A stretch of 64,000 nucleotides of DNA from Pirellulales bacterium (GTDB lineage: Bacteria; Planctomycetota; Planctomycetia; Pirellulales; UBA1268), in NCBI GenBank assembly GCA_028066355.1, contig JALCBP010000003.1, positions 69,746 to 133,745 of the forward strand, read 5' to 3'. Shown one piece after another: positions 21,698 through 48,653 of the stretch. Each line of letters starts with the position of its first letter. Positions within the stretch are counted from its first letter, which is position 1. The notes under the pieces are model-generated. The model saw nothing but the letters and a program-made list of their open reading frames with translations, made no database searches and had not been told where the DNA came from. The position numbers were made by a program, and so were the translations under genes.

Positions 21698-22561
21698 CTA
21701 AGGTCGATCGTCACCAATCGTATCACCACTGTTGCAAGTGGCCAAAGCTCGCAGCGTAGCTTTGCTAATGGTGTTGGACATAAAGCCACTTGAACCATCT
21801 GCCAAGCAGTATCCATTTACGCCACCAGCGTGTGGTGAACTTGGGAATGCCTGTGAAACAGTGCCTGGAATAGGTCCAGCCGATGCTCCGGTTGCGAGAC
21901 CGAACGTCGATGCATTTGAGTGACCTTCCCAGTAGTTTTCGTTGAAGTTTTCTTCAACGATCATGAGGGTGTTACTTGTGCCATCACGATACGATGCAAA
22001 ACCCTTGTCCTGATACAGGCCAAGACCACCATTGTCGGAAAGAGTTTTGCCACTGAAAGCACCAGAAGCTGTTGCAGATGCACCAGTTTCATCACTGGTT
22101 CCAACGTTGGCCTTGTAAACACTCTGGCCAGCTGTGGTACCAACAAATGAAGGGCAGATCAGCCAATCAACTTCAACAGTTGCATTGGTACCAGTGGGAA
22201 CAGCATAGTTGCCAGCTCCATTGATCGCATTGTAAAGATTGTTCTCTTCACCATATGGAAGAATATTTACAATGTGACTCCAGTGCGTAACACCAGTTAC
22301 TGGATTAGTAACAGTAGAAGCACCAGCTTGGTTAACACCCATTGCACTAGGCAGGAAGTTGTCACCACGACTGGCATGCTTGTCAGCATAGTTGTGTGCA
22401 GCCAAACCTTGTTGCTTCAGTTTGTTTCCACATGAACTGCGACGAGCAGCTTCACGAGCCTGTTGCACAGCTGGCAACAGCAGACCAACAAGAACACCGA
22501 TAATGGCAATAACCACTAGGAGTTCGATGAGGGTAAACCCTCGACGTGACGTAACTGTCAT
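21698..22561 (-). CDS. DUF1559 protein with prepilin-type N-terminal methylation motif
   Basis: [36 protein letters not shown] is a type II secretion/type IV pilin-like leader. The C-terminal SSPHAGGVN...LADGSSGF block is DUF1559-like. GGTGGAGGA lies upstream of the ATG. Confidence 0.85.
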
Positions 22562-34897: not shown

Positions 34898-36016
34898 ATG
34901 ATTGCTCACAGACTGTTTCTTGTGCCGTTGATTTGTTCACTTACCATCTGTGGTGCCTTCCAAGCGAAGGTCAAAGCGACCACACCTGAAGCAATTGAGC
35001 ACGCGATTTTCAGAGCATCGCAGTATTTGCAGGATTCTGGTCAACAGTCGGATGGAAGTTTCTCACCCAAAAGTGGTCCGGCAATTACCGCCCTTTGTAT
35101 CACTGCACTTGTTCGGACCGGAACGGCTATTGATAGCCGAATGGTGTCGCGAGCAGTTGCATACCTTCTTACGTTTCAGCAATCGGATGGTGGCATCTAT
35201 CAGCCTGAATCAGCAGTTGCAAATTATGAAACATCAATTGCCATACTTGCTCTTCACGAGTGCAATAGTTCCGGTCAATACGAGGAAATAATCCAAAAAG
35301 CCAGGCAGTTTCTCACGGTGATACAGTGGGATGAAAGTGAAGGAAATACGTATGCTGATCCTGAGTATGGTGGAGCCGGATACGGACGACACGAGCGACC
35401 AGATCTATCTAATACCGCCTTTCTCATCGATGCCTTGAAAGGTGTGGGAGCCAGTTCAGATGACCCTGCCATCCAGCGTGCGTTGATTTTTGTCTCGCGA
35501 TCTCAAAACCTTGAGGGCGTCTACGACATACTCGATGTTGCAAACAAAAATCCAGATGGTGGCTTTTTTTATACGCCAGCAAATGGGGGTGAGAGTCAGG
35601 CTGGCACAACACCAACTGGTGGTTTGCGCAGCTATGGGTCAATGACATACTCTGGGTTGAGGAGTATGATCTATGCTGGTGTTTCAGCAGATGATCCCCG
35701 TGTGGTTGCAGCGATAGAATGGCTTAAACGACACTACACCTTTGCAGAAAACCCTGGCATGGGTGATGCTGGTTTGTTTTACTATTTCCACACAGCTGCT
35801 AAGGCACTTCATGTTCTGGGGCAGGATCAAGTTATAGGTATTGATGGGAAAGCCCATGACTGGCGAAAAGATCTGGTGGGTGCTCTTCTTAGTAGCCAGA
35901 ACGAAGATGGCTCATGGGTGAATAACAACTCCCGATGGCTGGAAGGTGATGCTAATTTGGTAACGAGCTACGCACTGCTCGCACTGAGTTACTGTCAGCC
36001 ATCTATCAGTAAGTAG
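34898..36016 (+). CDS. Secreted prenyltransferase/squalene-oxidase-repeat (terpenoid-cyclase-fold) protein
   Basis: Signal peptide. Repeated Q.SDGS/GW units (QQSDGSFSP, QQSDGGIYQ, KNPDGGFFY, SQNEDGSWVN) are typical of alpha/alpha-toroid prenyltransferase-like repeats. Confidence 0.7.
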   Translation: MIAHRLFLVPLICSLTICGAFQAKVKATTPEAIEHAIFRASQYLQDSGQQSDGSFSPKSGPAITALCITALVRTGTAIDSRMVSRAVAYLLTFQQSDGGIYQPESAVANYETSIAILALHECNSSGQYEEIIQKARQFLTVIQWDESEGNTYADPEYGGAGYGRHERPDLSNTAFLIDALKGVGASSDDPAIQRALIFVSRSQNLEGVYDILDVANKNPDGGFFYTPANGGESQAGTTPTGGLRSYGSMTYSGLRSMIYAGVSADDPRVVAAIEWLKRHYTFAENPGMGDAGLFYYFHTAAKALHVLGQDQVIGIDGKAHDWRKDLVGALLSSQNEDGSWVNNNSRWLEGDANLVTSYALLALSYCQPSISK

Positions 36017-36371
36017 GCCGATTTGGTCGTTCCGTAAGTGAGCCTGATCATAGGTTGTGGACTCACATTCTGAGCATTACTGCGTTCAAAGCCTTATATT
36101 CACGGAACGCCTGTGGGATCGTCACATTGTGTGGGATGAGACATATCCCCTATGTATCCCCACTTCCATGCAAAAATTATGAAACTGATTTCACAAATCG
36201 AATATGTTACCGACGGTTAAAAAAACAGATTTTCCCTCGAATTGGTGGGTAATGAGCGAGATGAACACCCTATGGCTTAAATTTTAGACGATAGAAAAAA
36301 GCTTTATTTTAAGTCGAATCGTTTTCCTCGAGTGAAATTGTGACCGGGACTCAAAAAAATCAGAAAAAGAC

Positions 36372-36399
36372 TTGACGTCTTCACCGACAAGCCTATCAT
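36372..36399 (+). promoter_or_regulatory. Candidate sigma70-type promoter of the DUF1559-led operon
   Basis: TTGACG (36372-36377), a 16-nt spacer, then TATCAT (36394-36399). Each hexamer matches the consensus at 5/6. This implies a leader of about 165 nt before the ATG at 36570. Confidence 0.5.
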
Positions 36400-36402
36400 A
36401 AA

Positions 36403-36416
36403 TGAAACCGGTTTCT
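36403..36416. promoter_or_regulatory. Candidate LacI-family operator O1 (TGAAACCGGTTTCT)
   Basis: 14-bp CG-centred palindrome, 13/14 symmetric, starting 4 nt after the -10 hexamer so that it covers the expected transcription start. A near-identical site lies upstream of the lacI-like gene at 43959-43972. Confidence 0.55.
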
Positions 36417-36569
36417 TGTGGCGGACCGAATAGGGGTATTTGCAAGAAAACGGTTCCAAACGGGGTCGTGGCAGTTTGGCCTTTTCACGTCTTTGAACTT
36501 CATCACGATTTGCCAGACGTCTCAATCTGCATTTAACGCGTTCTTCACTTTTCTCAAAGGAGCTAAATC

Positions 36570-37604
36570 ATGGGGATGAAAACTGTGAGCCGACGGGGCT
36601 TCACGCTTATCGAACTTCTCGTAGTTATTGCAATTATTGGTGTGCTTGTTGGCCTTCTCCTACCAGCTGTGCAGCAGGCTCGCGAAGCTGCGCGGCGTAA
36701 CAGTTGCGGCAACAACCTCAAACAACTTTCTCTTGGTTGTTTGAATTATGAGTCGACAAACCAAAGCTTTCCTTCTGCTGGAGGACAAGCACAAACATTC
36801 TGGGGCACTGGAGAAATCAACAACCCGGCATCATCCAGAGAAAACGGTGGTTGGGCTTATCAGATTCTTCCCTACACGGAACAAATGAACGTCTATGAAC
36901 TTCGTAAGAGTGGCGGATGGAACGCGATTCTTGATGCCGAGATTCTTGAGCACACATGTCCTTCCCGTGGACTTCGCTTTACAGACAACGGTGCAGACGT
37001 GTTTCATTTAACTGACTATGCAGGCTGCATGACTGCAGAACCTGATTGGGCGGGAGCCGCCCGGGTCTGGGAAAACTGGAAGGCCAATGATCCCAATGAA
37101 GAAGCAAATGTCTGGACAGGTACAATTAAGAAGGGAACGCACAATGCTTGGCTTGGTGGCTCGTCACCAACGTGTGTCCCATATAAACGGGTGAGTTTTG
37201 CTGAAATTACAGATGGTTCAAGTAATACGATACTGCTTGCTGAGAAGTCAGCTTGGGGGCAGAACTATCAGATGACTGGTGGTGGCGCCATGTGGTGGGA
37301 AGATCCAGGTCGTTTTGCACCGAGTGATTGGGGTTCTATTCGTTACTTCGGTACAAATAACTTCGGTACTCCCCGAGGAGATTTTCAGGAGCGTCCTTGG
37401 GGCTGGTGGTTCCAGTATGGACAGGGAAGTAATGGCGAGACACGAATTGTCGAGCAAGGTTTCGGTTCGGCACATCCTGGTGTTTTCTCTGCCAGCATGA
37501 GCGATGGATCAGTAAAAACGATTCCTTTCAATGCTGACATTCAAGTGCTTATCAATCTGGCCAAACGCAACGATGGTAATGTAGCCAGTGCGAATGATCT
37601 GTAG
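36570..37604 (+). CDS. DUF1559 protein with prepilin-type N-terminal methylation motif
   Basis: [37 protein letters not shown] is identical over 37 aa to the paralogue at 21698-22561. The C-terminal GSAHPGVFSASMSDGSVKTIP block is DUF1559-like. AAGGAG lies upstream. Confidence 0.85.
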   Translation: MGMKTVSRRGFTLIELLVVIAIIGVLVGLLLPAVQQAREAARRNSCGNNLKQLSLGCLNYESTNQSFPSAGGQAQTFWGTGEINNPASSRENGGWAYQILPYTEQMNVYELRKSGGWNAILDAEILEHTCPSRGLRFTDNGADVFHLTDYAGCMTAEPDWAGAARVWENWKANDPNEEANVWTGTIKKGTHNAWLGGSSPTCVPYKRVSFAEITDGSSNTILLAEKSAWGQNYQMTGGGAMWWEDPGRFAPSDWGSIRYFGTNNFGTPRGDFQERPWGWWFQYGQGSNGETRIVEQGFGSAHPGVFSASMSDGSVKTIPFNADIQVLINLAKRNDGNVASANDL

Positions 37605-37671
37605 TTGTTCAACATGGGATTACGGTGGCGTCAGTTGTCGTGCTGACGCCACCAACTTACAGGGGAAAAAA

Positions 37672-38196
37672 ATGAATAAAAAGTTTCTGTTGGGTGTTTT
37701 TTCATTGTTATTTGTGATTCCTGGATGTGGTGACGGACGTGCTACTCCGGAACAACGTATACAAAACGCTAATCCGAGTAATGTTTTTCGTCTAACGAAT
37801 CTTTACAACCAGTTCAGCCAAATTCGAAATCGTGGTCCAAAAGACGAGAAAGAGTTCCGTCTTTTCATCGAGAATTTTGGTGACAAAAGGCTAGATCGAA
37901 TGGGTGTGTCTTTAGACAATCTTGACAACCTATTCGTGAGCGAAAGAGATTCCCAAAAATTTGACATCGCATATGGAGAGAGGCCGAAACGCGAAAAGGG
38001 TGTTACGGAAGACCCGGGAGATCTGGATGAAGGAAAAACGCTGTCTCGGGAGGAGAGAGAAAAAGGTCCTTCATTGGCATCACTTGGGTTGCCAGTAATT
38101 TTTGAGACAACTGGCGTTGATGGAAAAAAGAACGTTGGCTTTCTCGGAAGCCGTGTTGTTCGTGAGCTGACAGAAGCGGAAATTAGTTCACTTTGA
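37672..38196 (+). CDS. Small lipoprotein (hypothetical)
   Basis: The ATG at 37672 is preceded by AGGGGAAAAAA. The leader MNKKFLLGVFSLLFVIPGCGDG has a lipobox. The mature part is charged and Lys/Glu-rich. The listed ORF start at 37588 overlaps the upstream gene and is less likely. Confidence 0.55.
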   Translation: MNKKFLLGVFSLLFVIPGCGDGRATPEQRIQNANPSNVFRLTNLYNQFSQIRNRGPKDEKEFRLFIENFGDKRLDRMGVSLDNLDNLFVSERDSQKFDIAYGERPKREKGVTEDPGDLDEGKTLSREEREKGPSLASLGLPVIFETTGVDGKKNVGFLGSRVVRELTEAEISSL

Positions 38197-38403
38197 ATGT
38201 GGTCTAAAAAATAGATTTCGCGTACTTGAATTCATAAGAGTGGGCTATCTGCAGATTTGTTTCTTCGTGTTTTAAAGGAAACACGTTTGAATCAAGGCAG
38301 GTTATTTGAGCTGTCAGATGTAGCCTTATTTGATGGATGCTGCATGCACAGCTGTAATTGTCGATTGTGCGCTTGTTGAGATTGTTGTTATTTGGAGTAG
38401 GTC

Positions 38404-41400
38404 ATGAGCATTGCCAATAATCAGAGATCAGAACGGTCTCCAGAAAAAATTGGTACTACCACAAATAACGAGGAACCGTATCTCAGCTATGTTTTGCCAG
38501 GAGAGACTGGTAATAGCTTTGCTAACATTAAAGCGGTAGATCAGATTCCTCCATTTCTCATGACGGTACTTAGCAGTGATGATCACTGGATGTTTCTTTA
38601 TAGTAACGGTGCAGTGACATGTGGACGGAAAAATGCAGACCATGCCTTGTTTCCGTACTACCCAGCGGATGCTCTATTGGCTCTCAAAAATGCAGTAGGG
38701 CCGAAGACGATAATTTGGGTTCATCGCGATGAAGACGTTACCTGCTGGGAACCCTTTGGAGAGCAAGAAAGTCTTTTCCATGTTGACCGTGAACTCTCCA
38801 AAAATTTGATTGGTGACAAGGTCTGTTTCCAAGAGCACAATGAAACACTTGGGTTAAGTTTCTGGTATGAGTGGTCAGTAAGCGCCCGTTATGGTTTTGT
38901 GCGCACTGCTGGAATAACGAACCATAATGAGCAGGACTGTAGAGTAACGGTCTGCGATGGTGTCCACGGAATACTGCCAGCGGGTGTTGGGCATATTTTT
39001 CAGCAGCGATACAGCAACCTCGCTGATGCATATAAACAATCTGAACTCATCCAGGGTTTAGGAGTGAGTGTTCATTCGTTGAGTTCAATACCAGTTGACC
39101 GGCCCGAAGCCAGTGAAGCTTTGCGGAGTACTGTAGCTTGGACTCCGTCGTCGAGTCCGTCAACGAAGTTTCTCCTCTCAGATGATCAAATTAATCTGTT
39201 TCGTGATGGGATGACTGTCAGGACTGAGTGCACAAAGCGTGGGGTAAAGCCAGCCTTCTACAGGGTCGACGAATATAGTTTGTCTGCTGACGAGAACATA
39301 GAATGGAATATTGTTTGTGATGTCGCTGTTGATGCTTGTGACCTTCACGATCTACGTCGCTCACTGCAGAAAGGCAATATCTCAGATGTGAGTATTAAGG
39401 ACGATATATCACAAACCAATGCTGAGTTACATGCATTTGCAGGCCGAGTTGATGGACTTCAGTACTCAGGAGACGAGGCAGAGTCTCATCGTCACCTTTC
39501 GAATGCGTTACTAAACATTATGCGAGGCGGCATTCCACTTGATGGGTACACTATACGACGGAATGATTTTTTACGGCATGTAGAAAAGCGGAATAAAGAC
39601 TGCTTTAGAGAGAACAGAAACTGGTTGGAAATACTCCCGCAATCGCTCCAAAAAAGTGAACTTCTGGATGAGTGTAGGAGGCAGAGTTGTAAAGATATTG
39701 ATCGAATTGCTACTGAGTTTTTACCTCTTACTCTAAGCAGACGTCACGGTGACCCATCAAGGCCCTGGAATAGTTTCTCTATTCCGTCGCGGAATAAAGA
39801 TGGTGAGAGACAAATCGGTTTTGAGGGCAACTGGAGAGATGTCTTTCAAAATTGGGAAGCGCTCGCCGATTCTTTTCCTCAACTACTGGAGGGAATGGTT
39901 TATCGGTTCGTAAATGCGTCCACAGTCGATGGGTATAATCCATACCGTATCCAACTTGATGGTATCGATTGGGAACAGCCTGACCCGAATGATCCTTGGG
40001 CAACGATTGGGTACTGGGGCGATCATCAAATTATTTATTTGCATCGTTTGCTCTCACGTTACAGGAACTACTTTCCAGAAAATCTCAGGCAAGATTTAAC
40101 CGCTGATCGGTGTGTGTATGTTGATGTGCCCTACCGACTCAAGCCATTTGAAGAGATTCTAAAAACGCCAGGTGATACAGTAATTTTTGACGCTGCGGCG
40201 AATGATTCGCTTCGACGGAACATACAGTCGAGTGGATCAGATGCAGTCCTTGTGAGAAACGTTGATAAGAAGATTCATTATGTGTCACTCGCCGAGAAGT
40301 TACTGCTAACATCCCTGGTGAAGGTTTCAAATTTTGTTCCCGGGGCAGGGATCTGGCTTAGTACACAGCGACCCGAGTGGAACGATGCCCTAAATGCACT
40401 TGCGGGTAAGGGCGCATCTGTTATTACGGCATGCCACTTAAAGGTTTTTCTTGAGAGACTTGATGAACTGTTTGAGGACGTGAGTGAAAAAAGTATTCGA
40501 ATCTCTTATGAAGTTTCTCAATTTCTGCAATCCATTATATCGGTTCTTGATGGTTGCAGACTGTTTTCTGGTAGAACGATAGATTCGATAACGCGTCGAT
40601 TTACTTTAGCTGGCCTACAAAAAGCTGCAGAGACTTATAGGGAAACGGTGTACAGTGGTTTCTCTGGTAAGAGAACCGATGTTGCTATAGCAGATATTCG
40701 GCGGTTCTGTCTCAGAGCGATTCATGTCCTTGAGGAGACGATACGAGGTAACCGGCGTTCGGATGGTCTTTATGAATCCTACAATTGGGTCTGTGTGGGT
40801 GATGAGGCAATTCATATTGCTCCAGTTGGGCTTATGTTAGAGGGTCAAGTAGCGATTCTGGAGTCCAATGTGCTTTGCCAAAAAGAAGTTGTTGAACTTC
40901 TGAATGCCTTGGAAAAAAGTGATCTGTATCGTCCTGACCAAGACAGTTATTTGTTGTACCCGAACCAAGCAGAAAAAAAGTTTTCTGAAAAAAATCAGAT
41001 TCCTCAAGAGTGGTTTAAAAATAATTCAATAGCACGAAGAGTGATTGATGCTGGGGGCTGTGACCTGCTCTGCCAAAACGAAGATGGGGGATTGCATTTT
41101 GCGAGTGATCTCCGAAACAATGCCGATCTGAATGCGAAGATAGACTTGTGGAATAACACAGAGAACCAGTGGGAATTTACACAAGAGGATCGCAGGCAAA
41201 TATCAAATCTTTGGGAAGCCGTCTTCCACCATGAAACTTTTTCTGGAAGAGCTACAAATTTTTATGCATATGAAGGCCTTGGAAGTATTTATTGGCACAT
41301 GGTTTCAAAGCTTGTCCACGCAGTTGCCCAACAAATTCAAACAAGACAGTTTCGAGGTGAGCCAGTAATTCCAGAACTTAAAGAACACTTCTTTAAGATT

Positions 41401-41898
41401 CGAAATGGTGTTTGGAAAAGTAAATCTGTTCGCTCGTATGGTGCCTTTCCCTCAGATCCTTATTCACATACACCAGCTCATGCAGGTGCCCAGCAACCAG
41501 GTATGACAGGACAGGTAAAAGAAGATTTACTTACACGACTACTAGAACTCGGTATTGTTATTTGTGAAGGCCGTATTTATTTTGAAAATGTAATTCTGGA
41601 TCACTCTGAATTCCAAAGCATGCCGGGGCAGTTTCAATATTACGATGTTGACGGGAATCGAGCCAGCATTGATCTTGATGCTGGATTATTTGGATTTACG
41701 TTTTGCCAGGTCCCGATAATTTACGCAACTAATGGTCGAGGCCGGGGTATTCGGATTATATCACGATCAGGCGGAGAGGTGATTCGAAACCGTATGCGTC
41801 TGACAAAGCAGGAGTCAGAGGCGATCTTCAATCGCACGGGTAACATTGTAAGAATTGATGTGGGTGTCGAGTGCCCGCAGGGTGATGGTAGAGGCTGA
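38404..41898 (+). CDS. 1164-aa leaderless protein, putative GH94-like (alpha/alpha)6 glycoside phosphorylase/hydrolase-fold enzyme
   Basis: Long uninterrupted ORF with no signal peptide. EWNDALNALAGKGASV (nt 40375-40422) resembles the catalytic DWND..N....GKGESV block of GH94 enzymes as I recall it. GNWRDVFQNWE (nt 39826-39858) resembles their RD..Q block. The ORF call is firm. The fold and function call is tentative. Confidence 0.5.
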   Translation: MSIANNQRSERSPEKIGTTTNNEEPYLSYVLPGETGNSFANIKAVDQIPPFLMTVLSSDDHWMFLYSNGAVTCGRKNADHALFPYYPADALLALKNAVGPKTIIWVHRDEDVTCWEPFGEQESLFHVDRELSKNLIGDKVCFQEHNETLGLSFWYEWSVSARYGFVRTAGITNHNEQDCRVTVCDGVHGILPAGVGHIFQQRYSNLADAYKQSELIQGLGVSVHSLSSIPVDRPEASEALRSTVAWTPSSSPSTKFLLSDDQINLFRDGMTVRTECTKRGVKPAFYRVDEYSLSADENIEWNIVCDVAVDACDLHDLRRSLQKGNISDVSIKDDISQTNAELHAFAGRVDGLQYSGDEAESHRHLSNALLNIMRGGIPLDGYTIRRNDFLRHVEKRNKDCFRENRNWLEILPQSLQKSELLDECRRQSCKDIDRIATEFLPLTLSRRHGDPSRPWNSFSIPSRNKDGERQIGFEGNWRDVFQNWEALADSFPQLLEGMVYRFVNASTVDGYNPYRIQLDGIDWEQPDPNDPWATIGYWGDHQIIYLHRLLSRYRNYFPENLRQDLTADRCVYVDVPYRLKPFEEILKTPGDTVIFDAAANDSLRRNIQSSGSDAVLVRNVDKKIHYVSLAEKLLLTSLVKVSNFVPGAGIWLSTQRPEWNDALNALAGKGASVITACHLKVFLERLDELFEDVSEKSIRISYEVSQFLQSIISVLDGCRLFSGRTIDSITRRFTLAGLQKAAETYRETVYSGFSGKRTDVAIADIRRFCLRAIHVLEETIRGNRRSDGLYESYNWVCVGDEAIHIAPVGLMLEGQVAILESNVLCQKEVVELLNALEKSDLYRPDQDSYLLYPNQAEKKFSEKNQIPQEWFKNNSIARRVIDAGGCDLLCQNEDGGLHFASDLRNNADLNAKIDLWNNTENQWEFTQEDRRQISNLWEAVFHHETFSGRATNFYAYEGLGSIYWHMVSKLVHAVAQQIQTRQFRGEPVIPELKEHFFKIRNGVWKSKSVRSYGAFPSDPYSHTPAHAGAQQPGMTGQVKEDLLTRLLELGIVICEGRIYFENVILDHSEFQSMPGQFQYYDVDGNRASIDLDAGLFGFTFCQVPIIYATNGRGRGIRIISRSGGEVIRNRMRLTKQESEAIFNRTGNIVRIDVGVECPQGDGRG

Positions 41899-41929
41899 TC
41901 ACAAAAGTTATGTTTAGCTTTTCATAAAG

Positions 41930-42442
41930 ATGAGGAATAGTGGAATGATTCAAAAATTAAACCGGATGAAACTTCGCTGGTGTGTTCTTCTCGTTCTTGT
42001 AGCAGTTCTATCAAGTGTAAAATCCGATTTGCTGGCACAAGACTTCGGTGATAGTAAATCATCGACTTTGGTGACGAAAGCTTGGGAAGCGTTGGCAGCA
42101 GGTGAGCATGACAATGTTACTGCGTACACAAAGAAGTGTTGTGAGCTCTACCAAGACGAAGCAAAAAAACAGCAGAGTTCACTCTCTGATTTTGCAGGTG
42201 GGGACGACGATAAAATTCACTCATATTGGGCTCTGAATGATGTAGGAACAATCTTATTTGTTCAAGGAGAGTCACTATCGCAGCAAGGAAAATCTTCTGA
42301 GGCAGTGGAGGCTTACAAGAGCCTTGTTGATGACTACGGGTTCTGTCAGTGCTGGGACCCTCAAGGCTGGTTTTGGAAGCCATCAGAAGCTGCAGTAGCA
42401 AAAATAAAGGAATTAGATTTTGACGCACAACTGGATGATTAG
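41930..42442 (+). CDS. Small secreted helical (TPR-like) protein
   Basis: Signal peptide (LRWCVLLVLVAVLSSVKSDLLAQ) followed by a helical repeat-like region (SSEAVEAYKSLVDDYG). The start could be 41930, 41945 or 41966. It begins 31 nt after the giant gene and overlaps the next gene by 8 nt. Confidence 0.45.
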   Translation: MRNSGMIQKLNRMKLRWCVLLVLVAVLSSVKSDLLAQDFGDSKSSTLVTKAWEALAAGEHDNVTAYTKKCCELYQDEAKKQQSSLSDFAGGDDDKIHSYWALNDVGTILFVQGESLSQQGKSSEAVEAYKSLVDDYGFCQCWDPQGWFWKPSEAAVAKIKELDFDAQLDD

Positions 42443-43781
42443 AACTCAAATAGTTAAAAGCATCCTCGACAACGTTACATTTCTGTTTCTCTGCGCTCTT
42501 GTTGCACAAACAAGTGTAGCTGCTGATGGATCACGGGTCAGGATTCGTGGCAGTGCCAAAGATGGCTACCAACTGTACGTCAATGAAGAACACTTTGTGA
42601 TCAGGGGTGTTGGTGGGACATCACATATTGAATTACTCGCTTCATGTGGTGGTAACGCGATTCGGACATGGGATGCTGCATCAGCAGAGAAGAAAGTTGA
42701 CGGTAAGTCTCTCCTCGATCATGCGTATGACAAGAATATTTTTGTCACAGTTGGATTGTGGCTTGGTCATGAACGACATGGCTTTCGTTATGACGATCCA
42801 AATTCAATTACTCAGCAACGTGATGAGGTAGTTAACGCGATAAAAAGGCTGAAGAACCACCCAGCACTGCTATGTTGGGGTTTGGGAAATGAAATGGAAG
42901 GCCCTGATGGCAAGGGAGACAGTGTTCAGATTTGGAAAGAGGTAAACACACTCGCCAGCCTCGTTAAGAAACACGATCCGGACCATCCCGTAATGACTGT
43001 GGTGGCAAATGTGAATGATGCGAAGTTAGCCGCCATAAAAAAGTATGCACCACTCATCGATATTCTTGGAGTGAATGTTTATTCCGGATCAGTTGGAATG
43101 GACAAGACTCTTCGAGATCTTGGGTGGGAAAAACCATATTGTGTGAGTGAATATGGTCCTCCTGGTCCTTGGGAGGTCGCGTCAACAACCTGGAAAGCAC
43201 CTCTAGAGCCGTCGAGCCGAAGTAAGGCATCAACCTATTTTGCTGCAACATCTTCTATCTTGGATGCGACTTCAAAAGATGGTTCGCAAGTTGGACAGAA
43301 ATACTGTCTGGGTGGTTATGCATTTTTGTGGGGGCACAAACAGGAGACAACGGCAACCTGGTTCGGCATGCTCCTTCCTACTGGTGAAAAAACACTTGTC
43401 GTCGATGCGATGACCAAAGCATGGACTGGATCATGGCCTCGAAATAGAGCACCGATTCTGCAGAGCAACAGGATCACTTTCGCCGGTAAGAGAGTAGGTC
43501 CCGGTGAAATTCTCGATGCACATGTGGAATACCGTGACCCTGACAGTGACGATTTGTCGTACATATGGGAGATCGTAAAAGAAAGTACCGATCGGAAAAT
43601 TGGAGGTGACGCTGAAAAACGGCCAGACATTATTGAGAGTCGAGTTATTGATGGCTCTGGTTCTGATCAGATACGAATTCAGGCGCCACAGAAAACGGGT
43701 GGTTATCGACTATTTGTGACTGTTCGTGATGGACATGGATCTGGTTGTAGTGAAAATTGGCCATTCTTTGTGAGTCCCTAA
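42435..43781 (+). CDS. Secreted clan GH-A-like (TIM-barrel) glycoside hydrolase with C-terminal beta-sandwich domain
   Basis: Signal peptide (FLFLCALVAQTSVAADG). LCWGLGNEMEG is a candidate acid/base NE motif and PYCVSEYGPPG a candidate nucleophile Glu. The final ~100 aa look like an Ig-like domain. The ATG at 42435 overlaps the upstream stop (ATGATTAG). Confidence 0.6.
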   Translation: MIRTQIVKSILDNVTFLFLCALVAQTSVAADGSRVRIRGSAKDGYQLYVNEEHFVIRGVGGTSHIELLASCGGNAIRTWDAASAEKKVDGKSLLDHAYDKNIFVTVGLWLGHERHGFRYDDPNSITQQRDEVVNAIKRLKNHPALLCWGLGNEMEGPDGKGDSVQIWKEVNTLASLVKKHDPDHPVMTVVANVNDAKLAAIKKYAPLIDILGVNVYSGSVGMDKTLRDLGWEKPYCVSEYGPPGPWEVASTTWKAPLEPSSRSKASTYFAATSSILDATSKDGSQVGQKYCLGGYAFLWGHKQETTATWFGMLLPTGEKTLVVDAMTKAWTGSWPRNRAPILQSNRITFAGKRVGPGEILDAHVEYRDPDSDDLSYIWEIVKESTDRKIGGDAEKRPDIIESRVIDGSGSDQIRIQAPQKTGGYRLFVTVRDGHGSGCSENWPFFVSP

Positions 43782-43958
43782 AGAGCTGTGTACCCATCCG
43801 AACATTCTTAACATGATGAGCAGATGTTCTGATGAAGAGCATGAAAGCATTGTTCCCCACGTCAGGAAACAGTTGCGATTGTTCCACGTATGCCCCGTGA
43901 CAAGTAAAAGGGCATTTGCTTTGCCACTTAATGCGCTTTCAGACGAATTAGATTGCTA

Positions 43959-43972
43959 TGAAACCGGTTCCA
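43959..43972. promoter_or_regulatory. Candidate LacI-family operator O2 (TGAAACCGGTTCCA), autoregulatory
   Basis: 13/14 symmetric palindrome sharing TGAAACCGGTT with O1. It exactly fills the 17-nt spacer between a weak TTGCTA (43953-43958) and TATTTT (43976-43981), about 110 nt upstream of the lacI-like ATG. Confidence 0.5.
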
Positions 43973-44085
43973 GTCTATTTTAGAATGACACTCAGTAACC
44001 AGATAGCGGCAAGGTTTACTTCCAAAAAGGGAGTGAAGTGAAAATCGCCTAATGAGCTTTGTGCCTGGCAATCAAGAAAATAACC

Positions 44086-45132
44086 ATGATCAATCGAGAG
44101 ACTCACCAATCGCAATCAGCAGAGACAGTGCGAGACGGTGTCACGATTGATGATATAGCAAAACGGGCGAATGTATCAAAAAGTACAGTTTCAAGAGTTT
44201 TAAATGGGACTGCTGTCGTCAATGAACAGAAACGATCTGCCGTTCATCAGGCCATCGCTGAACTAGACTACAAGCCGAATGTGTTTGCTCAGGGTCTGGC
44301 GAGTGGAAAGTCAATGACGCTTGGCATCTTGACCCAAAATATTGGTAGTCCTTTCTACGATACAATTGCCCAGGGAGCCATTGAAGGCTTAGCAGGCTCA
44401 GGCTATACCCCAATTTTTGTTGACGGAAGATGGGAGCACGCTAGAGAAGCGGCTGCAATTGAGACACTTATTTCAAGAAAAGTTGACGGATTGCTTGTTG
44501 TTGGTGGTGACATTGATGCATCAGAACTTCAGTCCTACAAAACACAACTACCACTTATTGTTGCTGCAAGAGACATAGAGGGCCTCGAAGAACAATGTGT
44601 CTCAGTCAATAACAAACAGATTGGATATCTGGCAACGAAACATCTTTTGGAACAGCGGCATACACGGATTGCATTTATTCATGGAATAGAGGGTCACCCC
44701 GATGCTCAGAATCGTTTTGTAGGTCACCTTGAAGCGATTCAAGAGGCAGGCCTCAGTTTATCTGATGAACTTGTTTATCAAGGTGACTTTAGTGGGCATG
44801 CGGGACTCATGGCCATCAATTACTTTCTTGATCAAGGCATTTGCTTTAGTGCAATAGTTGCTGCAAATGATATGGTTGCATTTGGTGCAAGACTTGCCCT
44901 CTATCGAAGGGGCATCCGAGTTCCAGATGATGTTTCTATTATAGGTTGCGACGACCAGGCGGAGGCAGCCTTTATGACGCCGCCGCTCACAACGGTGCGG
45001 CAGCCCTCGTACGAAATGGGTGTGGCTGCCTCTAAAGCCCTTATTGCCTTGATAGGCAAGAAAAACTATGAGTGGCCTGCGTTGAATCCGGAATTGCAAA
45101 TTCGTGAAAGCGTCAAGCGTTTTACAAGTTAA
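44086..45132 (+). CDS. LacI-family transcriptional repressor
   Basis: HTH VTIDDIAKRANVSKSTVSRVLNG, the hinge region, then a periplasmic-binding-protein-like sugar-binding core (PDDVSIIGCDD, LTTVRQP). The ATG at 44086 is preferred over the TTG at 44059. Confidence 0.9.
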   Translation: MINRETHQSQSAETVRDGVTIDDIAKRANVSKSTVSRVLNGTAVVNEQKRSAVHQAIAELDYKPNVFAQGLASGKSMTLGILTQNIGSPFYDTIAQGAIEGLAGSGYTPIFVDGRWEHAREAAAIETLISRKVDGLLVVGGDIDASELQSYKTQLPLIVAARDIEGLEEQCVSVNNKQIGYLATKHLLEQRHTRIAFIHGIEGHPDAQNRFVGHLEAIQEAGLSLSDELVYQGDFSGHAGLMAINYFLDQGICFSAIVAANDMVAFGARLALYRRGIRVPDDVSIIGCDDQAEAAFMTPPLTTVRQPSYEMGVAASKALIALIGKKNYEWPALNPELQIRESVKRFTS

Positions 45133-45173: not shown

Positions 45174-46448
45174 TTACTCTTTCAAATCAAAGAGTCGCCT
45201 TAACGCTTCAAGGAGTCCGTGAGGTGGCCCAGCCTTACTTTCACTTCGTAAGGAAGCCATAGGAGGATGGAGCATTTTCGCTGCATACCTTTCGAACGAC
45301 TGTCGTATTTCTTGCCGACTATTTGAATCAAGTTTTGGAAGCTTTCGAAAAAGTCGATCAAGTTCTGCTTCACCTGTTTCATTCCATCCTGCTCGTAGTT
45401 GTTCAATGACCGGAGCAGTTGACCGATGATGCATGTCGCCCATGAACCGACGAGTTTCTTCATCAACAATTGTGAGTGCTGCAGGAAGTTGCTTTTGTCT
45501 TCTGCGTCGATTGGAATCGCAGGCCTGACCAAGGTCATCAATTGAGTAAAGCCAAACTCCAGGCTGGGTGCCGATGCGTGAATCGAAGTCTCGAGGAACC
45601 GCAAGGTCAAGAACAACAAGGGGGCGTCCCTCTCTCTGATCTTGAATTTTTTGGAAGAGGTCTAGCGTGACTACGGGTTCTGTGGCACCAGTCGTACTCA
45701 CAACAAGATCTGCATTTACAAGTTCATGAGACATGTTGTCGAAATCACCAATTTGAGCTTCAAGTCGTTGTGCCAGACTGTGAGCCCGCTTCATGGAGCG
45801 ATTAATAATTCGAATGTTCTGTGACCCGGCGTCACGAAGATAACGAAGGGTTTCAGCCGCCATTTTGCCGGCACCAATGAGAAGTACCTGTTTGTCATCA
45901 AATCGTTCAAACACACCACTGGCAAAATCAGCGACCGCGATACTTGGGATTGATAAACGTTCTCGTCCGACAGCTGTTTCAGTTGTTACGCGTTTTGCAG
46001 CTCGTAAGGCGGCCTGAAAGAGTTCTCCAGTAAGAGGACCAGTTGTTCCACTATTTTGAGCAAGCTGCCATGCCTGTTTGACTTGTGCAACTATCTGAGG
46101 CTCACCAAGAACCATGCTGTCGAGTCCTGCTGCAACACAAAATAAGTGCTTCACAGCAGCCGATCCTTGCTCTCCACCAAGAACTTTTCCGGCATTGATA
46201 GGATCGACACCTCGGCATTCTGCTAAAAACATCGCTAATTCATCTGGTGGAGGTGGCCCTCGGCGTTCCTCGTCGGCAGCGTACAACTCAATGCGATTGC
46301 AGGTTGACAAAAGGACCGCTTCACTTCCGGGGAACTGCTTCCGAAAGCGAACCAGTGCCTCGGTTGCTTGCTCTGATGAAAAAGCCAGTTTTTCACGTAG
46401 CTCAATTGGGACAGTACGGTGACTTCCTCCTGCGAAGGCGAGGCTCAT
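45174..46448 (-). CDS. hemA: Glutamyl-tRNA reductase
   Basis: SLAFAGGSHRTVPIELREKLAF, LSTCNRIELY (catalytic Cys) and LLIGAGKMAAET (NADPH fold). The ATG at 46448 overlaps the upstream stop as ATGA. The listed longer ORF start at 46535 lies inside the upstream gene. Confidence 0.9.
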   Translation of the reverse strand: MSLAFAGGSHRTVPIELREKLAFSSEQATEALVRFRKQFPGSEAVLLSTCNRIELYAADEERRGPPPPDELAMFLAECRGVDPINAGKVLGGEQGSAAVKHLFCVAAGLDSMVLGEPQIVAQVKQAWQLAQNSGTTGPLTGELFQAALRAAKRVTTETAVGRERLSIPSIAVADFASGVFERFDDKQVLLIGAGKMAAETLRYLRDAGSQNIRIINRSMKRAHSLAQRLEAQIGDFDNMSHELVNADLVVSTTGATEPVVTLDLFQKIQDQREGRPLVVLDLAVPRDFDSRIGTQPGVWLYSIDDLGQACDSNRRRRQKQLPAALTIVDEETRRFMGDMHHRSTAPVIEQLRAGWNETGEAELDRLFRKLPKLDSNSRQEIRQSFERYAAKMLHPPMASLRSESKAGPPHGLLEALRRLFDLKE

Positions 46449-47341
46449 AAAGCGTCTCCAACAGGCTTGGTTATGACCGAAGTATGCTTCTGTGAAGGAG
46501 TAAGTCCGTGCTGCGTAGTTCCAAGTACTCCCCATAAGATTGAAAATGTGAGCAGTGTAAGGCTAACAAGTGACAGCAGTGCTATGACTCTTCGGCCTAT
46601 CGCCCGCTGTCGCATCGCTCGTGATGTACCAGCCACAAACGTGAGCCAAGCAACGAGTGCGCCCATGCGTAGAACAACAGGGTCTGTCCATGGTACGCTC
46701 CCCAAAAGACCGCGTTGCTGATTGACAATATTCAAAATTATTCCTGAAAGAAAGCCAAGGCTGCCTGATACTGCGGCAGTCACGGCCATTCGTGATGACC
46801 AGTTCGATAGCTTTTCCAAACTGGGCATACGAAATCCTTGCAGTGGGGCCTGCTTCCTCGCAAGTCGTCCAGCCTGAATAAGCCACATGCCACCCGCGAG
46901 GCCACCAAGTACCACAGCGACGCTCATAACAAGATTGAAGCTTCCGTGAATAACACCCCAAATTTGTGTTGCAGGACTCTGTGGAAATGGTTCTCGGCTT
47001 GAAAGTTCAGCAACTCCAATAAGAGCTAATACGGCGGGTAGCACAAAAAGCCCAACTGGTGTCCGAGGATTTGAGACTGTCATCCAAAGAGATCCAGCCG
47101 CTAAAAGCCAGGCAGCAAGAAGATACCAATCAAACTCACTCGATAATGGTACCGAAGGAAGTGTGGTCGATCTCCAGATAAGATAGAGGCTGTGTGCAAC
47201 CAGGCCGGCAGTCACAAAACCAATCATTGTGATGCCTCGAACTCCCGACCGAAACCATAGCCGGCTTGCCTCAAATATGAGTGCGACACCATAGCTGGCG
47301 GCAAAGCAAACAACAGAAATTCGCGAGATGAAATCAGTCAT
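46445..47341 (-). CDS. HemX/CcsA-like polytopic membrane protein (cytochrome c assembly family)
   Basis: 298 aa with about 8 hydrophobic segments. It is translationally coupled to hemA (4-nt overlap). Family assignment rests on topology and context only; I did not see a clear WWD motif. Confidence 0.45.
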   Translation of the reverse strand: MTDFISRISVVCFAASYGVALIFEASRLWFRSGVRGITMIGFVTAGLVAHSLYLIWRSTTLPSVPLSSEFDWYLLAAWLLAAGSLWMTVSNPRTPVGLFVLPAVLALIGVAELSSREPFPQSPATQIWGVIHGSFNLVMSVAVVLGGLAGGMWLIQAGRLARKQAPLQGFRMPSLEKLSNWSSRMAVTAAVSGSLGFLSGIILNIVNQQRGLLGSVPWTDPVVLRMGALVAWLTFVAGTSRAMRQRAIGRRVIALLSLVSLTLLTFSILWGVLGTTQHGLTPSQKHTSVITKPVGDAL

Positions 47342-47582
47342 AGAGACCTTTAATAAAAACTCACTCCAAACATGGACAAACTATATGCACAAATATCGAC
47401 GATGATTATGAAGTCAGTGAAGGATCCCACGCAGAATGAACATTGGTTATATAGGGCTAAGACCAGTCTTTATTCCCGAAACAGAGTAATAAACTATTTC
47501 TCATTGTGAACATTCTTATTGTATCCAAGAAATTGATGACTTTGAGCCAACAACGGCTCCTGACAAACTATACTGAGCTATT

Positions 47583-48653
47583 ATGAATGATGATTCTCAT
47601 TTACCAGAACAAAAAGAGCTAGCCACTGGCATCGTTGAAGACTCCCTTTTTATGAGGGCATGTCGGCTTGAACCGGTATCTCGTCCACCAGTTTGGCTCA
47701 TGAGGCAGGCAGGCAGGTATCTTCCAGAATATCGGGCCATTCGTAATAAGACTACATTCTTAGAGCTATGCAAAAACCCAAAGCTTTCTTCTGAAGTCAT
47801 GTTGGCAACAGTGGATCGACTTGGTGTGGATGCAGCAATTATCTTTAGTGATTTGCTGCCACTGTTGCAGCCGATGGGCCTTGATTTGGAATTTGCTGCT
47901 GGTGAAGGACCCATCATACATAATCCACTTCGTAGCAGGGAAGATCTCGATCGATTTCATGAGCTCGTTGATGTTGATTCACTTAGCTTTGTTTTTGAAA
48001 CGGTACATTTAACACGTGCCGGCCTTCAAAAAGAATTGCCTGTCATCGGTTTCGCTGGCGCTCCATTTACTTTGGCAGGATATGCTATCGAAGGAGGAAC
48101 AAGTCGTAATTGGTTGCATACAAAACGATTGATGTTGACCGATCCTGATTCTTGGCACGAACTCATGGAAAGACTTGCAAGAACGATTGCCAGATATCTT
48201 CATGCTCAATTTGACGCTGGAGCAAATGCGGTACAGGTCTTTGATAGCTGGGTAGGTTGTCTCTCACCGGAACACTACAAGGAATTCGTTTTACCCCACA
48301 GCCGCGCCGTCTTTGAATCAATAGCAGGAAGGGGGCCAGCGATTCATTTTGCAGCGGGGAATCCGGATTTGTTGCCGCTTGCGGCTGAAGCAGGTGGCAC
48401 TGTCATGGGTATTGATTGGCGTACGGAATTGGATCATGCCTGGAAGCAGGTGGGGTACGATCGTGGCGTGCAGGGTAATCTAGACCCGGCCGTATTGCAT
48501 ACTACACCCGATGTTGTACGTCGTCGGACGGAAGATATCCTTGCACGTGTTGGGGGCCGCCCGGGACACATCATGAATCTTGGTCACGGCATCTTGCCAG
48601 AAACTCCAGTCGAAAATGTGTTGGAGTTCATCTCAACTGTTAAACAAAAATAG
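47583..48653 (+). CDS. hemE: Uroporphyrinogen decarboxylase
   Basis: PPVWLMRQAGRYLPEYR, IIFSDLL, GFAGAPFTLA and FDSW blocks. Confidence 0.93.
   Translation: MNDDSHLPEQKELATGIVEDSLFMRACRLEPVSRPPVWLMRQAGRYLPEYRAIRNKTTFLELCKNPKLSSEVMLATVDRLGVDAAIIFSDLLPLLQPMGLDLEFAAGEGPIIHNPLRSREDLDRFHELVDVDSLSFVFETVHLTRAGLQKELPVIGFAGAPFTLAGYAIEGGTSRNWLHTKRLMLTDPDSWHELMERLARTIARYLHAQFDAGANAVQVFDSWVGCLSPEHYKEFVLPHSRAVFESIAGRGPAIHFAAGNPDLLPLAAEAGGTVMGIDWRTELDHAWKQVGYDRGVQGNLDPAVLHTTPDVVRRRTEDILARVGGRPGHIMNLGHGILPETPVENVLEFISTVKQK

Follow-up and report, generated by a model that had tools for sequence, protein, structure and literature searches.

Candidate LacI-family operators at the promoter of a DUF1559 gene that heads a predicted beta-1,3-glucan utilisation cluster in a marine planctomycete

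A 64,000-bp stretch of Pirellulales DNA, called the window here, was analysed around a sigma-70-like promoter upstream of a DUF1559 gene. A 14-bp palindrome (O1) lies on the predicted transcription start of this promoter, a second one (O2) follows it, and a third precedes the gene of a LacI-family regulator at 44086-45132. We put the probability at about 0.8 that O1, O2 and the site at 43959 are operators of this LacI protein, which would repress a beta-1,3-glucan operon and its own gene. This reading is drawn from sequence comparison. The combination of a promoter with an operator, proposed earlier from the letters of the window, was supported by all in-silico tests, namely the phylogenetic footprint, the enrichment of sites, an independently trained matrix and the link to the regulator.

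The host is a marine Pirellulales-type planctomycete, and its relatives are labelled as Planctomycetaceae or Pirellulales MAGs. The window has a GC content of 46.6% and is 86% coding. The genes downstream of the promoter were assigned as follows.

36570 to 37604, plus strand: DUF1559 protein with an N-terminal prepilin-type methylation motif (PF07596, 1.5e-39; PF07963; NCBIfam prepilin domain)
37594 to 38196, plus strand: small protein of no family with a lipoprotein-like signal (…FVIPGC…), start uncertain (signal reading; gene calls in loci L001-L004)
38404 to 41898, plus strand: GH149 beta-1,3-glucan/oligosaccharide phosphorylase (PDB 6hq6, E 5e-273, residues 27-1155; NCBIfam NF058639, 1318 bits, above the cut-off of 1150)
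41930 to 42442, plus strand: 170-aa protein of no family with a signal peptide (conserved in L028-30, L032 and L038)
42435 to 43781, plus strand: GH158-like TIM-barrel glycoside hydrolase (PDB 9oro, 'Glycoside hydrolase family 158', 1.2e-80; PDB 6pal, 1.3e-65)

The GH149 protein matches a solved structure over its full length and scores above the curated cut-off. Because GH149 and GH158 are among these genes, the site heads a beta-1,3-glucan (laminarin) utilisation cluster, and by its position the DUF1559 gene is the first gene of this predicted cluster. The 207-nt gap before GH149 (38197-38403) was also inspected. No internal promoter, operator or terminator was found in it and nothing in it was conserved with locus L038, so read-through, and with it co-transcription of GH149 across the gap, appears plausible. 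An unrecognised internal promoter could also lie there.

The promoter and O1 lie in an intergenic spacer of 553 bp that separates a squalene-hopene-cyclase-like gene (34898-36016) from the DUF1559 gene (36570-37604). The letters were re-read, and TTGACG, a 16-nt spacer, TATCAT, AAA and then TGAAACCGGTTTCT followed one another exactly at the coordinates given in the first-pass annotation. The elements of the spacer are listed below; scores are those of a matrix described further on.

36180 to 36193, unstranded: distal weak operator-like site O3, TGAAACTGATTTCA, 223 bp before O1, with a TG instead of a CG centre (13.3 bits)
36353 to 36370, plus strand: A-rich tract, possibly UP-element-like, with A-runs conserved at matching positions of the window and the GC-rich L038
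36372 to 36377, plus strand: -35 hexamer TTGACG, invariant in nine loci, TTGACC in L038 at equal distance
36394 to 36399, plus strand: -10 hexamer TATCAT, with the variants TATTAT, TATATT, TAACAT and TAGTAT; T1, A2 and T6 invariant
36403 to 36416, unstranded: candidate main operator O1, TGAAACCGGTTTCT (22.8 bits, top score in the window)
36445 to 36458, unstranded: candidate second operator O2, AGAAAACGGTTCCA, 42 bp downstream of O1, invariant in nine loci (16.2 bits, third in the window)

In O1, with the half-sites TGAAACC and GGTTTCT, six of the seven arm pairs are symmetric about a CG centre, leaving one mismatch to the perfect palindrome TGAAACCGGTTTCA. O1 overlaps the predicted transcription start, and the -10 and -35 hexamers are conserved. 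The spacer of about 550 bp had been thought to hold one operator; the site at 36403 stands, and it is one of three (36180, 36403 and 36445). O3 reads TGAAACTGGTTTCA in five other strains, and its arms are invariant in nine loci with diverging flanks. It is probably a weak operator of uncertain function, and is doubtful because no counterpart was found in L038. A minus-strand open reading frame of 73 aa with a TTG start (36304-36525) overlaps the promoter; by judgement it was not taken as a gene.

A consensus scan over 35900-36700 returned the promoter as its sole promoter-like match (10/12 positions), in line with its earlier description as the best sigma-70-like promoter of the spacer. Shuffled sequences gave a mean of 1.3 such matches versus the one observed; the match alone is therefore not above chance and proves nothing. 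The promoter consensus is poorly documented for Planctomycetes, and nothing usable was found in the literature. The assignment to the sigma-70 type relies on two hexamers with a 16-nt spacer, whose critical positions and spacing are conserved across relatives.

The regulator gene and its own site were then placed as follows.

43953 to 43981, plus strand: lacI promoter-like element TTGCTA-17 nt-TATTTT, read from the sequence, with the operator filling the spacer
43959 to 43972, unstranded: candidate autoregulatory operator TGAAACCGGTTCCA, 114 bp upstream of the lacI ATG at 44086 (22.1 bits, second in the window)
44086 to 45132, plus strand: LacI-family regulator of 348 aa with the recognition helix NVSKSTVSRVLN (Pfam PF00356, 1.3e-18; PF13377; PF00532)

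The LacI protein combines an N-terminal HTH with Peripla_BP domains, and a regulator of the matching family is thus encoded near the sites. The site TGAAACCGGTTCCA bears out the expectation of a near-identical copy at another relevant promoter. The promoter scan at lacI gave ATGAAA-17-TAGAAT (43958-43986) instead of the element listed above, and the candidate operator overlaps the predicted core promoter under either assignment. The layout TTGCnn, 14-bp operator plus 3 nt, TAnnnT is common to the window, L028/L030, L034, L038 and L040, and the site is conserved though the surrounding 200 bp share only 58% identity with L028. In the 348-aa sequence no C-terminal extension for tetramerisation can be seen, and lac-type looping by a tetramer is therefore not expected. 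The closest solved structures were CcpA, RbsR and PurR, and the protein scored below every NCBIfam equivalog cut-off (RbsR, PurR, GalR, CytR, CcpA and Cra). Membership in Cra/FruR was rejected at 84.6 versus a cut-off of 385 (NF008452) and 86 versus 389.55 (TIGR02417). The hemA gene (glutamyl-tRNA reductase, minus strand) and a URO-D gene, at 45174-48653, flank lacI and are syntenic in all close relatives; they are unrelated to the cluster.

Sites were looked for in the 64-kb window and in related contigs out to ±10 kb, and their number was compared with chance expectation. The window holds two sites with at most one mismatch versus 0.01 expected in shuffles, in a test that was post hoc. The orthologous loci of other species, 118,761 bp in all, contained 12 sites with one mismatch or none, versus 0.016 expected. 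All 12 are intergenic and stand beside lacI or its target genes. Ten control loci with distant LacI paralogues contained no site with at most one mismatch. Moreover, a matrix trained on the foreign sites only ranked 36403 (22.8 bits), 43959 (22.1) and 36445 (16.2) as the top three positions of the 64-kb window, and O3 (36180) tied with one coding-region match at 13.3 bits. The sites have the features of LacI/GalR operators, being even palindromes with a central CG whose presence ahead of the orthologous target genes and of lacI is conserved in other genomes.

Loci with orthologues of the LacI protein, from 100% down to 48% identity, were collected and are cited by number. In nine strain or species variants the -35 hexamer, T1, A2 and T6 of the -10 hexamer, O1 and O2 never change; the changes fall in the promoter spacer, at positions 3-5 of the -10 hexamer and in the bases of the 3-nt gap. 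O1 keeps its 3-nt distance from the -10 hexamer in L028-30 and L038. The promoter spacer is 16 nt long in the window, L001-4, L019, L028-30 and the GC-rich L038, with a -35 hexamer of TTGAC[GC]. L038, with 62% GC and a LacI 73% identical to that of the window, has the same gene order plus an MFS gene. Upstream of its DUF1559 gene stands TTGACC-16 nt-TAGTAT-TCC-TGAAACCGGTTTCC, and another site, TGAAACCGGTTTCT, follows at a distance of exactly 42 bp. When the window was aligned with L038, the only conserved islands were the -35 hexamer, TAnnAT, the 16-nt spacer length, the 3-nt gap, O1, O2 (+42) and the upstream A-runs; the rest of the promoter region was unalignable.

The motif accompanies orthologues of the LacI protein down to 48% identity. 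Its recognition helix, NVSKSTVSRV[LI], is invariant in all motif-bearing orthologues and different in motif-less paralogues. The LacI orthologue stands next to beta-1,3-glucan genes everywhere (GH149/GH158, MFS-GH149-GH16 or GH16+CBM11/GH81+CBM56), and the association of the motif with this orthologue and with beta-1,3-glucan genes is exclusive. In the Rubripirellula-type loci, where LacI is 56-61% identical, MFS-GH149-GH16 is divergent from lacI-DUF1559, and the divergent spacers hold two to three sites overlapping or just downstream of promoter-like hexamers. In the cultured R. tenax, which has a locus of this type at SJPW01000003.1:692822-713829 of assembly GCA_007860125.1, the sites read TGCAACCGGTT[TG]CA. 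The DUF1559 gene lies 95-120 bp downstream of lacI in L034-L036, L039 and L040, and about 590 bp downstream, after a small ORF, in L037. No operator was found in the lacI-DUF1559 gaps examined, and the two genes are probably co-transcribed. This DUF1559 protein shares only about 34% identity with the one in the window and is a different paralogue in the same functional neighbourhood.

Perfect copies of the palindrome occur in L011, L034 and L040. The first of these belongs to an Ardenticatenaceae MAG binned as Chloroflexi, in which a 53%-identical LacI orthologue adjoins a giant GH16+CBM11 protein and a GH81+CBM56 protein (L011, 1321-9765) and two sites lie 42 bp apart. Either the contig was binned wrongly, or this pairing of regulator and operator at beta-1,3-glucan genes extends across phyla. 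The centre-to-centre spacing of 42 bp is shared by the window (36403/36445), L038 (378/420) and L011 (9820/9862). Spacings elsewhere were 64 bp in L034 (9874/9938), 65 and 53 bp in L037 (9845/9910/9963) and 62 and 65 bp in L039 (9788/9850/9915). That these values are near whole helical turns hints at cooperative binding on the same face of the DNA.

The operon is not present in all relatives. In L020-22 (LacI 82%), L009 (73%) and L031 (75%), lacI comes immediately after the cyclase-like (SQHop) gene, and the five genes are absent. The junctions are listed here.

L020, 3834 to 4078: cyclase-like gene to lacI
L021, 9752 to 10000: cyclase-like gene to lacI
L009, 899 to 1167: cyclase-like gene to lacI
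L031, 9887 to 10027: cyclase-like gene to lacI

L023 and L009 are of one lineage; the L023 contig does not extend to the region upstream of lacI. Since close relatives lack it, the five-gene cluster is polymorphic for presence and absence at one fixed place in the chromosome. In L007-L009 and L020-L023 a central base is missing from the lacI site, which is no longer symmetric (TGAAGC-GGCTGCA, TGAAAC-GGCTGCG), and the short region upstream of lacI in L031 is unrelated and contains no site. Furthermore, lacI is a pseudogene in L009 (1168-2150) and L023 (224-1206), with three in-frame stops, an internal deletion and a frameshift, all identical in these two independent assemblies. Because both operator and lacI decay where the operon is missing, operator, regulator and operon behave as one functional unit. 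In the 82% and 75% LacI lineages, on the other hand, lacI is intact although no operator can be recognised and no operon adjoins it, and the regulator may therefore have other targets. The operon tract itself, at about 36300-43470, has 94-98% DNA identity to L028 2200-9400, with flanks at 72-90%; at the protein level the DUF1559 proteins are 99.4% identical, versus 84% between the cyclase-like proteins and 90% between the HemA proteins. These figures suggest that the laminarin cassette, promoter included, was recently exchanged between lineages by homologous recombination.

Such a recent import, together with the expected transcription of part or all of O1 and O2, could mean that the palindrome acts in the RNA, as a 5'-UTR hairpin or attenuator, or that it is a functionless remnant of duplicated or recombined DNA. 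This explanation is largely refuted, and we regard it as very improbable. A gapless 14-nt palindrome makes a poor hairpin, and the predicted 170-nt 5'-UTR folded no better than shuffles (z = +0.48), giving no indication of a riboswitch or structured leader. No Rfam match was obtained in 35950-36650 at E up to 1. Moreover, the copy at lacI falls in a promoter spacer that would not be transcribed, and the motif is kept in unrelated contexts, in both orientations and across phyla.

The sites could also be cre-like boxes of a global CcpA-type catabolite regulator, with the neighbouring LacI protein being either that regulator or irrelevant. The motif agrees with TGNAANCGNWNNCW, the cre consensus given in PMC5483248. 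CcpA is among the best solved relatives of the protein, and the R. tenax orthologue carries the NCBI name 'Catabolite control protein A'. However, the protein reached 188.5 bits versus a cut-off of 442.35 for the CcpA equivalog (NCBIfam TIGR01481), and membership in CcpA was rejected. The distribution of sites also argues against a global role: strong sites occur in the 64 kb only at the operon and lacI, those in about 140 kb of foreign loci are only intergenic and beside lacI or its target genes, and operator and lacI decay together in lineages without the operon. We therefore consider a global cre-type function improbable and a dedicated LacI regulator the better reading of the sites.

In the first-pass annotation the operator had been likened to the LacI/FruR type. 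The LacI-type half-site and the central CG agree with this; the exact precedent is PtxS and not FruR/Cra. The Cra box has the same TGAAAC half-site without the extra central pair, and a shorter centre. More generally, the sites share with the LacI/GalR operators (lacO, cre of CcpA, purO and the Cra box) an even palindrome, a central CG and half-sites of the form TGnAAn; repression by steric hindrance at the core promoter would be a further likeness. PtxS is a 2-ketogluconate-responsive LacI-family repressor of Pseudomonas with the experimentally established operator TGAAACCGGTTTCA; it is autoregulated, and its sites in the ptxS, kgu and gad promoters span -9..+5, +5..+18 and +10..+23 (PMC5902321). 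This 14-bp palindrome is identical to the motif consensus found here, and sites near -10/+1 and autoregulation (both predicted here) are likewise common to both systems. In contrast to PtxS, two to three sites stand at each promoter here, with 42-bp phasing, and the phylum differs, as presumably does the effector. Membership in the PtxS regulon was rejected: the operator is shared, but the targets are GH149, GH158 and DUF1559 and not the ketogluconate genes kgu and gad. Orthology of the LacI protein to PtxS is unlikely.

The arrangement of these elements suggests how the switch would work. Transcription would start near 36406, as predicted from the -10 hexamer at 36394-36399, and a LacI dimer bound to O1, spanning about -4 to +10, would keep RNA polymerase from binding or from forming an open complex. 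O2 lies four helical turns further downstream on the same face and could contribute by cooperative binding or as a roadblock. The controlled transcript would begin with DUF1559 and probably run through the lipoprotein gene, GH149, the gene of the 170-aa secreted protein and GH158. The regulator would also repress itself through the site in the spacer of its own promoter (negative autoregulation). Some LacI-family members, such as CcpA and Cra, activate from certain positions, and O3, at about -225, is a possible upstream site, so we leave a small chance that the LacI protein binds the sites as an activator or dual regulator and not as a steric repressor. Against this, O1 overlaps the predicted start, the lacI site fills its promoter spacer, and the Rubripirellula-type sites overlap or directly follow core promoter elements; such positions are repression positions, as for PtxS.

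The repressor would be released by a beta-1,3-gluco-oligosaccharide, with laminaribiose as the best guess. In Clostridium thermocellum, the LacI-family repressor GlyR3 controls celC-glyR3-licA and is released by laminaribiose (PMC5483248). By analogy with GlyR3, and because the neighbourhood of GH149, GH16, GH81 and GH158 is consistent with it, the inducer here is probably laminaribiose or short laminari-oligosaccharides. The two systems have in common the LacI family, beta-1,3-glucan genes, a 14-bp CG-centred site, its position near the transcription start and autoregulation (the last two predicted here). They differ in the site, which is TGAACGCGCGTACA for GlyR3, and in the position of the regulator gene, which is inside the operon in C. 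thermocellum and downstream of the operon with its own promoter here. The enzymes also differ, being GH5 and GH16 there versus the GH149 phosphorylase, GH158 and DUF1559 here. Co-localisation of a GH149 gene with a LacI-family regulator and a sugar transporter has been reported in Proteobacteria (Kuhaudomlarp et al. 2018, PMC5827456). For those clusters, which have ABC transporters or TonB receptors, the paper describes no operator (PMC5827456); the present cluster, in contrast, is planctomycetal, has a gene for a pseudopilin-like DUF1559 protein at its head and comes with defined candidate operators.

Promoter-overlapping LacI operators, autoregulation and the proximity of LacI genes to GH149 clusters are already known, and the mechanism is textbook. 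What appears to be new, as far as sequence can tell, is this specific regulon in Planctomycetes, its defined set of candidate operators and DUF1559 as the first gene predicted to be regulated. In a literature search that was not exhaustive, no paper describing this planctomycete regulon was found, and a 2026 paper on laminarin-degrading PVC bacteria makes no mention of LacI, GH149, GH158 or DUF1559. The promoter is one of few phylogenetically footprinted sigma-70-type promoters in the phylum. Laminarin represents one of the largest oceanic carbon fluxes, and to our knowledge barely anything is known of its sensing and use by Planctomycetes. For the GH149/GH158 locus of marine Pirellulales, the promoter, three candidate operators, a putatively autoregulated repressor and a predicted inducer form a concrete testable unit, and the equivalent locus in Rubripirellula tenax makes the predictions testable in a cultured relative.

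We were particularly interested in the DUF1559 gene, since the placement of a family member under predicted sugar-specific control is a better lead than the regulation itself. DUF1559 proteins are pseudopilin-like and hugely expanded in Planctomycetes, and we know of no function for them. DUF1559 genes also stand directly downstream of lacI in the Rubripirellula-type laminarin loci. We tentatively propose, at rather less than even odds, that the DUF1559 protein and the small lipoprotein are parts of a planctomycete-specific apparatus for beta-1,3-glucan capture or uptake, co-induced with GH149 and GH158 once an oligosaccharide derived from laminarin has released the LacI repressor. If true, a DUF1559 paralogue would for the first time have a functional context tied to a particular substrate, with a defined regulatory switch for testing it. 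The window contains a second DUF1559 gene at 21698-22561 on the minus strand. No operator-like site was seen near it, and an N-terminal region of about 40 residues in its product is nearly identical to that of the DUF1559 protein of the operon.
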